Below, in pieces: positions 47,490-64,000 of a stretch of 64,000 nt of DNA. The notes under the pieces were generated by a model. That model did no database searches and was not told the origin of the DNA. It was given only the letters and a program-made list of their open reading frames with translations. Positions within the stretch are counted from its first letter, which is position 1. The number at the start of each line of letters is the position of its first letter. This DNA is from Candidatus Latescibacterota bacterium (GTDB lineage: Bacteria; Latescibacterota; UBA2968; UBA8231), in contig OZ220089.1 of NCBI GenBank assembly GCA_964291625.2, forward strand, positions 3,424,001 to 3,488,000, in the 5' to 3' direction. A program made the position numbers and the translations under genes.

Positions 47490-48419
47490 TCACGGGCGCA
47501 CCCGGAGGGCGGCTTTGATACGACCCCAGGATGACCGTTCCACGGCGGAAGCGTCGTCTTGGAGTGGATCCTCTCCGATGCCGACGAGCAAACCATCGAC
47601 GAAATGGCTCGCGAAAGTGTTGACGTTGAGTCCTAAGGGGGTCAGCAGGTACGGGAAGGAAGAGACAAAGGGTGGTTCCTCGTCAGCGTCGAAAAGACGG
47701 AGCTCGAATCCAATGATCTTGCCTGGGTACAGCTCCGAGACTCTGGAGTGGCTCTCGTCGTTGTAGACGAGGCGGTCGAATGGCGTCAACTTCATCTCAA
47801 GGACCCAGGTTGCCGGGCTGTGGCCGATAACTCCGCCACCCCCGGCAGCGTAGGGCGCCATCGTGTGCCACTCGCCAGCACCGGGGTAGCGGAGGGACTG
47901 GTCCTCCGGGTCGATCGGCATCCAGTACATTTGCGCTTGGCGGTAGTTCAACAGAGCAACCTCTTCCTCATCATCGTCGCCGCCAGAGAACTTCCGATAT
48001 CGGCCACCGGAGTGGTCGCCGTCGATGTAGAAGGCCATGCAGGCATCCCAAGTGGTGCAGGATTCCCAATCTTCTTTTCCGTCCCCAAGGTATCCGATGA
48101 AGCGATCATCGAAGGCTTCTACGGCGACCCAGAGGGTAGTGGTGTTCCGGTGCCACGCGAGCCAGACGCGGACATCCAGATTCTTTGGATCGCTGGGATA
48201 GTCGGCGTCGCCCTCCCAGAAGTCGGAGGTGACCAGGGACGGCTCGGAGGCGACCTCGAGCCAGTCCTCGACGCTGCCGTCGGTCAGGTCGATGCGGTCC
48301 AAGTCGTCGTCGAGGAGTTCGTAGAAGAGGTAGATTTCGTCCCCGGTGTGGGCGCGGGTGATGCTGGCGGGGGCCAAGGCGAGCAGCAAGAACAGCGAGT
48401 GAATAGTGCTTGGATGCAT
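47490..48419 (-). CDS. Secreted DOMON/CBM9-like protein with SWGRIK C-terminal tag (paralog 1)
   Basis: Signal peptide ending TRA|HTGD; DGSVEDW, VWLAW, DGDHSGG, GKIIGF; ends SAVERSSWGRIKAALRVRP. Fold call is tentative. Confidence 0.75.
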   Translation of the reverse strand: MHPSTIHSLFLLLALAPASITRAHTGDEIYLFYELLDDDLDRIDLTDGSVEDWLEVASEPSLVTSDFWEGDADYPSDPKNLDVRVWLAWHRNTTTLWVAVEAFDDRFIGYLGDGKEDWESCTTWDACMAFYIDGDHSGGRYRKFSGGDDDEEEVALLNYRQAQMYWMPIDPEDQSLRYPGAGEWHTMAPYAAGGGGVIGHSPATWVLEMKLTPFDRLVYNDESHSRVSELYPGKIIGFELRLFDADEEPPFVSSFPYLLTPLGLNVNTFASHFVDGLLVGIGEDPLQDDASAVERSSWGRIKAALRVRP

Positions 48420-48473
48420 TTCCTTCTCCTGCGAGAATGCGACTGGCATTGCTTGGAAGCATGCAGCGCGAAT

Positions 48474-48503
48474 TCTCCCCGGGGGCCAAGGCCCCCGGGG
48501 AGA
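48474..48503 (-). terminator. GC-rich hairpin just downstream of precursor 1
   Basis: CTCCCCGGGGGCC-AA-GGCCCCCGGGGAG; no U-tract, so may be a stabilising stem. Confidence 0.6.
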
Positions 48504-48519
48504 GCATCAGACCAGCACC

Positions 48520-48810
48520 CTACCAGCACTTACACCGATAGTAGGGCGAGGATCCCAGTCGAACGCACGCCCAACCGCCACCGTCACACGGGGACGCATC
48601 GCAATCATCCTTGCACCAATAGGCATGGTGACTGTTGCAACCCCAGGCTCCCCAGCATGTATCGGCCTGCGCATCTTCAGGCATGCTCAAAACGACGGCC
48701 CCAGCCATCAGCACAGCGGCGACCCAGGCTACCGGCAGGATCGCCTGCTTCCTGACGCCGTCCTCGTTGGCGATAAAGCCGCCCACAACACTGCGGATCC
48801 GCCTCAACAT
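48520..48810 (-). CDS. Cys-rich defensin-like peptide precursor 1
   Basis: GGAGG RBS; 49-aa leader shared with two paralogs; core DTCWGAWGCNSHHAYWCKDDCDASPCDGGGWACVRLGSSPYYRCKCW (8 Cys). Confidence 0.88.
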   Translation of the reverse strand: MLRRIRSVVGGFIANEDGVRKQAILPVAWVAAVLMAGAVVLSMPEDAQADTCWGAWGCNSHHAYWCKDDCDASPCDGGGWACVRLGSSPYYRCKCW

Positions 48811-48920
48811 GACATTCCTCCCTCAGGAAGGTGGACTGCGTTGATCAAAAAAACCCTCTATCTCCACCCTGCTTTTTTCGCCAGCTACCTCCTCTCTGGG
48901 CCGCAGGGCGCTTTGCCCGT

Positions 48921-62321: not shown

Positions 62322-62354
62322 CAAGGGAGCGGGGAACCAGTCCCCGCTCCCTTG
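62322..62354 (-). terminator. Hairpin downstream of precursor 3
   Basis: CAAGGGAGCGGGGA-accag-TCCCCGCTCCCTTG, 14-bp perfect stem. Confidence 0.65.
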
Positions 62355-62401
62355 GAGCTATGACCCGCGTGCTTTCAGGGCGCACCAGGTCTCCCGATGG
62401 A

Positions 62402-62689
62402 CTACCACCCACATCGGCACCGATACGTGCCCGATGAACCATACTGGACACATCCGGAAGAGTAGACCTTGCAGTATTTTCCGCAGACGTAAGGACAGGG
62501 TGAGGGACTGACGTTGTAGCAGTCCACCGCCACCCAGCAATAAGCATCGGCCTTTGCGGGCATGCTTAGCACGACAGCAGCCGCCATCATCACGGCACCG
62601 ACCCAGGCCACAGGCAGGATCGCCTGCTTCCTGCCAACGTCCTCGCTAGCGATGAAGCCGCCCAGAAGACTGCGCACCTGCTTCAACAT
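62402..62689 (-). CDS. Cys-rich defensin-like peptide precursor 3
   Basis: GGAGG RBS; conserved leader; core YCWVAVDCYNVSPSPCPYVCGKYCKVYSSGCVQYGSSGTYRCRCGW (8 Cys). Confidence 0.88.
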   Translation of the reverse strand: MLKQVRSLLGGFIASEDVGRKQAILPVAWVGAVMMAAAVVLSMPAKADAYCWVAVDCYNVSPSPCPYVCGKYCKVYSSGCVQYGSSGTYRCRCGW

Positions 62690-62786
62690 GATTCTTCCTC
62701 CTATGGAAGTGAACTGCATCAGTCCTAGAATTCTCCACGCGGCGACATGTCGTTTACCTCCTCTCTGGGCCGCAGGGGGGTGTAAT

Positions 62787-63839
62787 TCATCCGTTGAGCC
62801 ACACGAGCAAGGCCCTCAACGGCGGGGCCAAGTGCCCTCCGAAGGCGGCGGTAACCAGCCCGCCGAGCACGAGGAAGGGGACGAAGGGCAGGGCCCGCGC
62901 CAGCTCCACCGTCCCGGGCAGATCGCCAGAGGCCGCCCGCTTCTGCAGCAGGTGCACCCTGTCTTGGTCGAGGCTCTGCCCGCTCTCCCAAGTCACCTCC
63001 GCCCCATCGTCCCCGGCCAGGACCAACCGGTGCCGCAGGACCGCTCCGGGCCGAACCCGCCCCACCGGCATCTCGTACCCGTAGGCCCGCCCGCTCCCGT
63101 GCCGCACCTGCTGAAAGGCCAGCTCCAACAGCCACGCCACCCCCCAGATCAGGGCATAGTCCTTCCAGCCGCCGGTCGACACGGCCAACAGCGCCAGGGC
63201 CGCCAGCCCGGGGATCATTACCACCGGACGCCTCTCCGGCTTGAGGCCCCACTCCAGCAGGCGGTATCCCACGACGAGGAAGGCGAAGGCTTCCAGGTAG
63301 CTCAAGGGGCGGTTGAGCACGAGGTGGGCGAAGCTCAGGGCCAAGCCGAGCAGGCCTCCCAGCCCGGCGGCGGCCTGCAGCCATGGCCCCCGGTTTCCCT
63401 TGGCGGACATCCACTGACGCTCTCGCCAAACCACGACCGCCAGAAGCACGGCGACGTAGGCCACCACGGCGTTGGCAATCAGCGCCGCCGGAGGGGTTTC
63501 CAGAGAGACCCATTCGCCCACCGGGCACAGGCTCGGCGGCAGGGCGGCCACGGCCGCCCAGTACATCTTGGCGTCGCCCGGCGACCAGACTCCCGCCAGC
63601 ATCAGCAGGAGCGCCACCCCCAGCCCCAGGAGCAGGGTCCCCGCCACCTGGTTCCAGCCGCCCACGCCCAGTCCCACCATCGCCGCCTGGCCGGTCACGC
63701 CGACCCCGAGCAGCCCGAGGGTGTAGCGGTTCGGCACCCGCTGGAACCGGAGGTCCGTCCAGGCCGCACAGATCCCGGCCGTCAGCAACGCCGACAGCAT
63801 CACCAGCTCCACCCAGAGAATGGGGTCGCCTAGGGACAC
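62787..63839 (-). CDS. A24 prepilin-peptidase-like membrane aspartic protease (cassette 3)
   Basis: WTDLRFQRVPN, WSPGDAK, LPFVPFLVLG; close paralog of 48921..49970. Confidence 0.82.
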   Translation of the reverse strand: MSLGDPILWVELVMLSALLTAGICAAWTDLRFQRVPNRYTLGLLGVGVTGQAAMVGLGVGGWNQVAGTLLLGLGVALLLMLAGVWSPGDAKMYWAAVAALPPSLCPVGEWVSLETPPAALIANAVVAYVAVLLAVVVWRERQWMSAKGNRGPWLQAAAGLGGLLGLALSFAHLVLNRPLSYLEAFAFLVVGYRLLEWGLKPERRPVVMIPGLAALALLAVSTGGWKDYALIWGVAWLLELAFQQVRHGSGRAYGYEMPVGRVRPGAVLRHRLVLAGDDGAEVTWESGQSLDQDRVHLLQKRAASGDLPGTVELARALPFVPFLVLGGLVTAAFGGHLAPPLRALLVWLNG

Positions 63840-64000
63840 GACCGGCACTCCTCGTCCAAGGCCACGTCCTCGGCCAGTTCCTCGACCAGTTCCTGGACCG
63901 GCCCCACGCCCCGGGCCGCCGCCGCCACCGTGCCCTCCGGGTCGAGGCGGTAGGCCGTGGGCACGCTGACGGCGTAGTAGGCCAGCGACGTCTCTCCCGT
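63830..64000 (-). CDS. TlpA-like oxidoreductase B, 3' end (cassette 3; start outside the window)
   Basis: Manual translation ...SLAYYAVSVPTAYRLDPEGTVAAAARG...EECRSCP*, paralog of 49961..50545. Confidence 0.82.
   Translation of the reverse strand, partial: TGETSLAYYAVSVPTAYRLDPEGTVAAAARGVGPVQELVEELAEDVALDEECRSCP

Follow-up and report, generated by a model that had tools for sequence, protein, structure and literature searches.

A Latescibacterota gene cassette that may pair an A24 peptidase with TlpA-like proteins in making defensin-like peptides

What would a prepilin peptidase cut in a bacterium whose genome lacks type IV filament machinery? This question is raised by a 64,000-nucleotide (nt) stretch of a Candidatus Latescibacterota genome (GCA_964291625.2, contig OZ220089.1, positions 3,424,001 to 3,488,000; hereafter, the window), in which three minus-strand cassettes, at 47490-51105, at 57938-61111 and from 61127 to beyond 64000, repeat the same parts, i.e., two TlpA-like CxxC proteins, an A24 aspartyl peptidase, a precursor of about 96 amino acids (aa) and proteins that end in a SWGRIK tag. 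On balance, we lean towards the reading that these cassettes belong to a lineage-restricted Latescibacterota system for variable, small, extracytoplasmic disulfide-rich proteins, in which, judging from the sequences, the A24 enzyme would process the leader and the TlpA pair would serve the disulfides. An initial annotation of the window had described the three cassettes, and their gene order and coordinates hold when compared with the open reading frames (ORFs), the repeats and the protein alignments; its five gene types are all present, although the second cassette carries two SWGRIK genes, which had gone uncounted. The genes of cassette 1 are as follows.

50548-51105, minus strand: TlpA1, a membrane-anchored thioredoxin-fold protein with a CPAC active site
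49961-50545, minus strand: TlpA2, a second membrane-anchored thioredoxin-fold protein with a CRYC site and a C-terminal CxxC tail
48921-49970, minus strand: A24 aspartyl peptidase, 349 aa, with about 8 hydrophobic segments and a long C-terminal extension
48520-48810, minus strand: precursor 1, 96 aa, with an F-x-x-N-E-D-G N-region, a membrane helix, an AxA site and a 47-aa core with 8 Cys
47490-48449, minus strand: SWGRIK protein, 319 aa, with a signal peptide and a C-terminal SWGRIK tag

The overlaps between these genes are given as 4 nt for TlpA2/TlpA1 and 10 nt for A24/TlpA2.

The peptidase matches the Pfam family PF01478 with 28.5, 32.7 and 37.5 bits, above the cut-off of 26.5, and the domain is precomputed for 49 of 63 clusters of A24 homologues, one source labelling such homologues 'CpaA'. 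Across 39 homologues, D29 (T-D-L...V-P-N), D89 (P-G-D-A-K) and C105 are invariant, and hydropathy places each of the two Asp after a hydrophobic segment on the same membrane side; by these sequence features, the enzyme looks active. Its C-terminal part of 220 aa shows a weak match to archaeal EppA (NF053826, E 5.7e-5, 22.6 bits vs. a cut-off of 450), and the nearest Atlas clusters are archaeal Arc_PepC-type proteins that carry PF06819. In the whole genome, PF01478 is matched by two cassette genes only. The initial annotation had seen no Tad or type IV pilus genes in the window, and this extends to the whole genome (95% complete, 2 contigs), in which PF00437 (T2SSE ATPase), PF00482 (T2SSF platform), PF04964 (Flp) and PF07963 (N-methyl pilin) find no match; in five other carrier genomes, no T2SSE (PF00437) match exceeds the cut-off. 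The partnership with a type IV filament that is expected of an A24 enzyme is therefore missing from the window's genome, and because this is the sole A24 type in a genome that lacks the filament machinery, it is left without a conventional substrate.

Only the co-encoded precursors combine a short N-region that ends in a conserved Gly with a membrane helix immediately after it. The Flp prepilin leader, F-x-x-D-E-S-G, which is cut by TadV/CpaA, appears to share the spacing of the precursor motif. From this motif and the genome logic, we infer that the A24 enzyme is the likely leader peptidase of the precursors. A complex prediction of A24 with precursor residues 1-50 returned a score of 0.01, which gives no verdict and was counted neither way.

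All precursors share one plan: an N-region F-x-x-S-E-x-G, about 7 polar residues, a 19-residue hydrophobic helix with LPVAW, a P-x-K-A-x-A site and a Cys-rich core. Among 43 divergent members, 37 keep the F, 38 the G and 42 each the E and the W, and the alanines of AxA are kept in 39 and 41; within the close family, the AxA site and the Pro at -6 are kept in 54 of 55 precursors and the Gly at -1 of the N-region motif in 41 of 55. The residues that follow this Gly are V/F-R/K-K/Q-Q-A-I/L. The leader is more conserved than the core, as had been claimed, with a mean pairwise identity of 68% vs. 43% (n=50), the latter falling to 32% when the Cys are left out; the description of the leader as near-constant goes too far, since the three window leaders are only 69-78% identical pairwise, with cores at 36-64%. 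Up to 16 precursor matches occur per genome, and these multi-copy precursors with a conserved leader and a variable core are what is expected of ribosomally synthesised and post-translationally modified peptides (RiPPs). Two other features of that type, a modifying enzyme beyond proteolysis and disulfide formation and a dedicated exporter, are absent from the cassettes, which hold the five gene types only. The three window precursors match no Pfam or NCBIfam family, be it a pilin, an enzyme subunit or any other named family, and a search of PDB sequences with the precursor profile gave nothing at E <= 0.3.

Because every leader also ends in a signal-peptidase-I-type AxA site, the A24 enzyme is not necessarily the protease that frees the core. 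Thus, from the initial proposal of A24 as the maturation protease, a putative cut in the leader stands, to which motif and genome logic point, while the release of the core does not follow from it, the AxA site being kept in 54 of 55 precursors. In genus g14 (L076 6614-6799; L079 3162-4356), a precursor leader with F-x-x-S-S-S-G or S-T-S-G, a helix and an AxA-like site stands on proteins of 280-330 aa made of repeated Cys modules, so the leader serves cargo beyond mini-proteins. The precursor of genome G039, which belongs to another family, has an N-E-S-G motif and 10 Cys.

The core was initially called defensin-like with a scaffold of 8 Cys, and both parts of this description are borne out. 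The 8 Cys are invariant across the three window precursors, 46 of 54 close-family cores have 8 Cys, and the cysteine-stabilised alpha-beta regular expression of PMC11561630 (C...CxxxC...C...CxC) matches 50 of the 54. An AlphaFold2 model of the core, built on a 55-sequence alignment, has a predicted local distance difference test score (pLDDT) of about 85, ranging over 77-87, and a beta-alpha-beta-beta order (E52-56, H65-72, E80-84, E91-95), in which CxxxC lies within the helix and CxC within the last strand. Foldseek places plant defensin-like and scorpion-toxin structures among its best rows for the core, e.g., 2mz0 with a template modelling (TM) score of 0.52 and a root-mean-square deviation of 2.4, none of these rows being significant. 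The core in the window's genus is predicted to be a cysteine-stabilised alpha-beta defensin-like domain of about 45-50 aa with 8 Cys, with its alpha-helix on a three-stranded sheet. More distant precursors keep the leader and have other Cys patterns in the core, some g14 members carrying the 280-330-aa Cys-rich repeat cargo. At locus L043 of genome G019, a chimeric ORF (9894-10295, minus strand) joins the signal peptide and first approximately 100 residues of a SWGRIK-family protein to a Cys-rich defensin-like tail similar to the P0247 core, the ORF being a product of recombination or else a pseudogene joint.

Both TlpA-like proteins possess an N-terminal hydrophobic anchor and a CxxC motif, and their initial identification agrees with the Pfam scores: TlpA1 exceeds the cut-offs of AhpC-TSA (45.9 bits) and Redoxin (39 bits), and TlpA2 that of AhpC-TSA (28.9 bits). 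They are ResA/DsbE/MauD-like and score below the NCBIfam cut-offs, which places them outside those named equivalogs. The CxAC of TlpA1 is kept in 18 of 19 homologues; the active-site CxxC of TlpA2 is kept at 13 of 17 loci, the second Cys being lost at the other 4. In genus g1 only, TlpA2 carries an additional tail after the thioredoxin domain, acidic-C-x-S-C (49961-49990 in the window; also L023-L026 and L045), which could be a shuttle disulfide. A search of the genome found neither DsbB nor VKOR and one DsbD-type protein, which makes a dedicated pair of disulfide catalysts plausible.

The initial annotation left open whether the genes travel together elsewhere, and they do so both as neighbours and across genomes. 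Two surveys were used, one of 168 Latescibacterota genomes and a close one of 41 relatives. Of the 168 genomes, 32 have the A24 subfamily and 35 the precursor superfamily; 31 have both, 1 has A24 alone and 4 have the precursor alone. Kin are not independent in this count, whose pattern covers 7 genera in 3 families. In G089, the genome with A24 alone, an ORF at L060 bears a weak likeness to the precursor. Among the 41 relatives, the precursor occurs in 6 genomes and the A24 subfamily in the same 6 and in G039. At nine precursor loci of 5 related genomes, SWGRIK genes or fragments are present in all nine, at least one TlpA in eight and a whole or partial A24 in seven. The gene order varies: genus g11 has TlpA1, TlpA2, precursor, SWGRIK, A24, and G039 has TlpA2, A24 and precursor adjacent, TlpA1 5 kilobases (kb) downstream and no SWGRIK. 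By sequence, the cassette is a conserved system rather than a local oddity.

When 30 loci were centred on A24 with flanks of 1.5 kb, a TlpA-like gene was found at 27 and a precursor at 15. Apparent A24-TlpA modules without precursors (L061-L074) are largely an effect of this flank, since precursors lie only a few kb further on in the same genomes; those of genus g14 stand 2-9 kb from A24-TlpA-TlpA, in tandem units. The close precursor family comprises 55 clusters among 5.8 billion proteins, compared with 63 for A24, and a HMMER pass over 1.84 billion representatives gave 35 matches to the precursor profile. The radical S-adenosylmethionine (radical-SAM) gene was considered as a further part of the system and rejected, as the gene or its fragments flank cassettes in genus g1 only (3 of 4 g1 relatives checked, plus the window), outside the unit itself, and not at the G006, G019 and G039 loci. 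More distant loci encode, between A24 and TlpA1 or before TlpA1, an approximately 200-aa protein whose D-G-I-S-G-A-T motif is similar to the flavinylation site [S/T]GA[S/T] of PMC8238504 (L061 2583-3239 and L042 13814-14401, both plus strand); the L061 protein has no Pfam match at E up to 0.001.

The SWGRIK proteins, initially taken as part of the cassette, turned out to be more loosely attached. They are about 310 aa long with a signal peptide, and their family exceeds 565 clusters at E <= 0.001, with 23 matches in the window's genome. The family is found in 24 of the 41 related genomes vs. 6 for the precursor, and it is absent from the G039, G115, G082/G089 and g14 loci. Copy numbers are 12-32 in five of six cassette-bearing genomes, 3 in the sixth, G004, which is fragmented, 0-7 in the remaining genomes of that family and zero in other families; arrays without precursors also stand between housekeeping genes at 3545-3548 kb and 548 kb of the genome. 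Elsewhere, the gene after the precursor encodes other partners: an FG-GAP protein with a type IX secretion system (T9SS) type A sorting domain after each of two precursors examined in g14, and a 928-aa tetratricopeptide repeat protein in G039. Because SWGRIK genes are missing from other lineages' loci, which have other partners, they are lineage-specific partners and not core parts, and the order of a Cys-rich precursor followed by a secreted protein recurs across lineages.

As to what the SWGRIK proteins are, no Pfam or NCBIfam family matches them, PF06452 finds none of 62 members at E up to 1, and a search of PDB sequences with the SWGRIK profile gave nothing at E <= 0.3. Three leads point to a divergent CBM9/DOMON-like sandwich, none of them reaching a curated threshold: distant paralogues match CBM9_1 (PF06452) with 14.9-20.2 bits in 3 of 6, under the cut-off of 23.4; Atlas neighbours carry CBM9_1 in 13-94% of members; and the AlphaFold2 model, which is poor (mean pLDDT 52), has NxrC as its top Foldseek row (E 0.01, a lead only). 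In the close family, the His after the signal peptide and a C-E-x-C motif show little or no variation. A role as copper proteins with an N-terminal-His 'histidine brace', or as redox proteins with CxxC, was rejected, as the His and C-E-x-C are missing in G019-type members and the cassette 1 copy has no CxxC.

The C-terminal tag, [ST]-x-V-x(3-4)-[ST]-W-G-x-[IVL]-K followed by 2-10 residues, ends 57 ORFs of >150 aa genome-wide, which are 170-1506 aa long and many of them unrelated; in the window, the tagged ORFs end at 47490, 57938, 58922 and 61127. Of 65 SWGxIK motif hits in the genome, 57 lie within 12 residues of the C-terminus and 2 at 13-120 residues. No membrane helix accompanies the tag, and the approximately 100 T9SS type A tails of the same genome are distinct from it; given these tails and the position of the 57 hits, the idea that SWGxIK opens a T9SS sorting domain was rejected. 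The tag may instead be a signal for sorting or anchoring that has yet to be described. Just past the window (3489325-3490227 of genome contig C1), a SWGRIK gene contains one in-frame TAG, and copies in several relatives, too, have single stops or splits; SWGRIK arrays seem to turn over quickly.

The remaining cassette features of the window and the marks of its duplication are the following.

51279-51667, strand not given: degenerate copy of a radical-SAM gene 5' end, upstream of cassette 1, 77% identical over 412 nt to genome 3492309-3492709
57938-58867, minus strand: distal SWGRIK copy of cassette 2, 309 aa
58922-59848, minus strand: proximal SWGRIK copy of cassette 2, 308 aa
60010-60300, minus strand: precursor 2, 96 aa
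60407-60955, minus strand: truncated A24 of cassette 2, the C-terminal half alone, profile positions 173-356
60955-61089, strand not given: recombination joint, 86% identical over 135 nt to genome 3492649-3492778 (radical-SAM gene 5' end), fused to the A24 remnant
61127-62095, minus strand: SWGRIK protein of cassette 3, 322 aa
62402-62689, minus strand: precursor 3, 95 aa
62787-63839, minus strand: A24 aspartyl peptidase of cassette 3, 350 aa, PF01478 37.5 bits
63830-64000, minus strand: 3' end of TlpA2 of cassette 3; the gene exceeds the window, and TlpA1 is next in the genome

Past the window, cassette 3 runs on through the remainder of TlpA2, then TlpA1, to a further two SWGRIK genes, of which one has the in-frame TAG, and a radical-SAM gene. 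Families of direct repeats, 147-300 nt long with 67-85% identity, occur in 3 or 4 copies in the window, and between cassettes the precursors are 55-56% identical, the SWGRIK proteins 51-54% and the two full A24 enzymes 83%, a similarity of the aligned sequences far beyond chance. The radical-SAM copy at 51279-51667 reads as an edge marker of the duplication unit, and from such copies at the edges, the repeat families and the protein alignments, it follows that one ancestral block gave rise to the three units by segmental duplication. The copy in cassette 2 is broken, and its A24 remnant, having neither of the catalytic Asp motifs, is presumably inactive.

The cassettes sit in a plastic, island-like stretch. 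The G+C content at third codon positions (GC3) is 0.71-0.90 for the cassette genes, 0.94-0.98 for nearby housekeeping genes and 0.60-0.66 for the flanking helicase, Dcm, Vsr and SDH-type protease genes. Adjoining cassette 1 at 42727-47226 on the minus strand are a UvrD-like helicase ORF (1012 aa, named by reading), a C-5 cytosine methylase (PF00145) and a Vsr endonuclease (PF03852), which look like a foreign restriction- or defence-type island. Between cassette 1 and a glycosyltransferase block, at 51845-53379 on the minus strand, there is a ClpP-like SDH-type serine protease (PF01972, GC3 0.60) with a downstream 139-aa ORF of no family. The block itself (53842-57286, minus strand) consists of two group-1/4 glycosyltransferase ORFs, one of which also matches PF20706 ('GT4 in conflict systems'), flanking a BtrH_N + DUF4872 protein, and it is bracketed by a 63-nt direct repeat with 71% identity (54497-54559 and 57727-57789).

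How, then, might the parts of the cassette work together? We propose that the precursor would insert N-in/C-out by its single hydrophobic helix and that the cassette A24 would clip the cytoplasmic N-region right after the Gly of F-x-x-S-E-x-G, in the way that Flp prepilins are cut by TadV/CpaA-type enzymes. Both TlpA-like CxxC proteins, anchored in the membrane, would form or shuffle the four disulfides of the core at the outer face of the membrane, and the core would be freed at the conserved AxA, probably by signal peptidase I. The A24 cut may accordingly be a dedicated leader-processing step, for timing, quality or membrane extraction, and not necessarily the releasing cut, and the downstream secreted proteins would be lineage-specific partners or co-cargo.

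Several observations weigh against this reading, every step of which we infer from sequence. The A24 assignment comes from Pfam scores modestly above the cut-off (28.5-37.5 vs. 26.5 bits), and the A24 profile finds no relative among PDB sequences (nothing at E <= 0.3). The likeness to the Flp cleavage site is a putative one, drawn by analogy, and the Glu at +5 and Tyr at +6 of Flp prepilins are absent after the motif Gly of the precursors; with the E limit raised to 10, PF04964 (Flp_Fap) and PF07963 still match none of the three window precursors. Of 55 close-family members, 13 have A, T or V at -1, and the g14 motif has S in place of E. For the core, the Foldseek rows 2mz0, 6lcq, 7jn6 and 1t7e have E values of 3.6-7.2 and TM scores up to 0.52, with no row at E <= 0.001, and the net charge of -6 to +5 shows that the cores are not uniformly cationic antimicrobial peptides. 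No exporter gene is found in the cassette. Finally, with its canonical AxA, the leader could be an ordinary if long Sec signal peptide for which A24 is unneeded.

This last point leads to a doubtful alternative, i.e., an ordinary Sec-secreted Cys-rich family that signal peptidase I alone matures and the TlpA pair oxidises, with A24 as a signal-peptide-peptidase-like leader scavenger or a non-proteolytic partner of TlpA. Such a role agrees with the AxA site, with A24 and TlpA being the tightest pair (adjacent in 27 of 30 loci), with the invariant C105 of A24 and with locus L030, which has TlpA1, TlpA2, a precursor and a SWGRIK array and no A24 nearby. It fits less well with two invariant catalytic Asp residues and with an A24-precursor co-occurrence of 31 in 32 genomes; moreover, conservation within the N-region is highest at a small-residue motif that ends in Gly at a fixed distance from the helix, as a site-specific cut predicts. 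The opposite arrangement, in which A24 cuts the short leader and the AxA goes unused, would leave a mature 75-aa protein in the inner membrane that displays its Cys-rich head like an unassembled pseudopilin and could serve its secreted neighbours as an anchor or receptor. We regard this as unlikely: AxA and Pro at -6 in 54 of 55 precursors are hard to explain unless the site is cleaved, E+5 is missing, the genome has no assembly ATPase or platform protein, and neither the Flp nor the N-methyl family matches, even though the hydrophobic segment of approximately 19 residues with its conserved LPVAW is longer than a typical Sec h-region, the A24 enzyme resembles the archaeal EppA/Arc_PepC enzymes that process class III signal peptides, and a secreted-protein gene follows each precursor gene in several lineages.

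That same gene order, seen in different lineages, would also suit a small protein that yields no free peptide and serves, MauA-like, as a dedicated subunit, inhibitor or ligand of its large secreted neighbour (SWGRIK, or the FG-GAP/T9SS cargo in g14), as would the 12-32 SWGRIK copies in five of six cassette-bearing genomes vs. 0-7 in others of the family and the weak MauD-like match of TlpA1. This appears quite improbable, given that the partner families are unrelated between lineages, that SWGRIK arrays also stand alone without precursors, that G115 has three tandem precursors with no partner between them, and that the MauD score is 30.5 bits vs. a cut-off of 188.6. The reading with A24 as leader processor and the TlpA pair as disulfide catalysts is the one that we carry forward.

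If the A24 enzyme does process the precursors, it would be a prepilin peptidase with a dedicated non-pilin substrate in a setting that has no pilus, secretion pseudopilus or archaellum, and 'class III-like' leaders and A24 enzymes would have a wider role. An orphan A24 gene with a TlpA pair would then offer a signature for genome mining. We tentatively suggest, short of holding it probable, that the cassettes stand for an unrecognised maturation pathway, in which an A24 enzyme uncoupled from type IV filaments and TlpA-like catalysts mark a hypervariable arsenal of Cys-rich mini-proteins, with bacterial 8-Cys defensins and larger Cys-rich cargo among them, carried on one bipartite leader and each encoded beside a secreted surface protein, i.e., a new biosynthetic class of defensin-like effectors that follows a leader grammar of its own. 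With the cores, bacterial cis-defensins would gain a sixth group, 8-Cys and plant-defensin-like, from an uncultured phylum, which bears on the debated bacterial origin of eukaryotic defensins, and dozens of natural core variants on one leader would amount to a ready-made library of disulfide-stabilised scaffolds with its own folding catalysts. An A24 peptidase in a bacteriocin-like role in genomes without a type IV filament was not found in print, nor was anything on Latescibacterota defensins or WGRIK-type motifs, and the main text of the flavinylation paper PMC8238504 contains neither 'prepilin' nor 'A24'.

Compared with known systems, the cassette shares parts of its logic with several. With the Flp/TadV-CpaA pair, it has in common a short cytoplasmic leader, an acidic-x-Gly before a hydrophobic helix and a dedicated non-methylating A24 enzyme with two Asp motifs; it differs in having no E+5/Y+6, no Flp_Fap match and no TadA-type ATPase or TadB/C platform, in the AxA and Cys-rich domain that follow the helix, and in the extra 220-aa C-terminal part of the peptidase. 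The archaeal EppA/FlaK-type enzymes with Arc_PepC are similar in length (about 350 aa), in the weak C-terminal EppA match and in the PF06819 of the nearest Atlas clusters, whereas the enzyme described here is bacterial, scores 22.6 bits vs. an EppA cut-off of 450 and is accompanied by no archaellum or pilus genes. In methylamine dehydrogenase maturation, MauA, a small periplasmic protein with multiple disulfides, likewise has its own TlpA-like and polytopic membrane proteins, MauD and MauE; here, the TlpA1-MauD match is 30.5 bits vs. a cut-off of 188.6, and no MauA, MauB or MauE relatives are seen.

Some bacteriocin loci encode their own thiol-disulfide oxidoreductases, e.g., bdbA/bdbB of sublancin and the accessory thioredoxin-like proteins of pediocin-type loci, and use ATP-binding cassette (ABC) exporters with a C39 peptidase together with double-glycine leaders. 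The shared logic is a precursor of leader and core, with a protease reserved for the leader and extracytoplasmic CxxC proteins reserved for the disulfides, whereas the protease here would be an A24 intramembrane aspartyl enzyme and no exporter is encoded.

The closest counterparts of the core are the bacterial cis-defensins, comprising the five classes of PMC11561630 and the actifensins (PMC6989792), with published sets from Myxococcota and Actinomyces-type bacteria. The pipeline of PMC11561630 discarded sequences with predicted transmembrane segments, and 'Latescibacter' is absent from its main text, its supplementary tables of 74 bacterial defensins lying outside this comparison. Both sides are small secreted peptides with the C...CxxxC...C...CxC pattern and a beta-alpha-beta-beta fold, which is predicted in the present case, whereas the 8 Cys, the bipartite 49-aa leader and the dedicated A24 and TlpA genes set the present peptides apart, and the passages of PMC11561630 that were compared describe no such biosynthetic context. 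As modelled, the bacterial cis-defensin-like peptides gain a new group here, with 8 Cys, from a phylum that goes unnamed in the main text of that survey.

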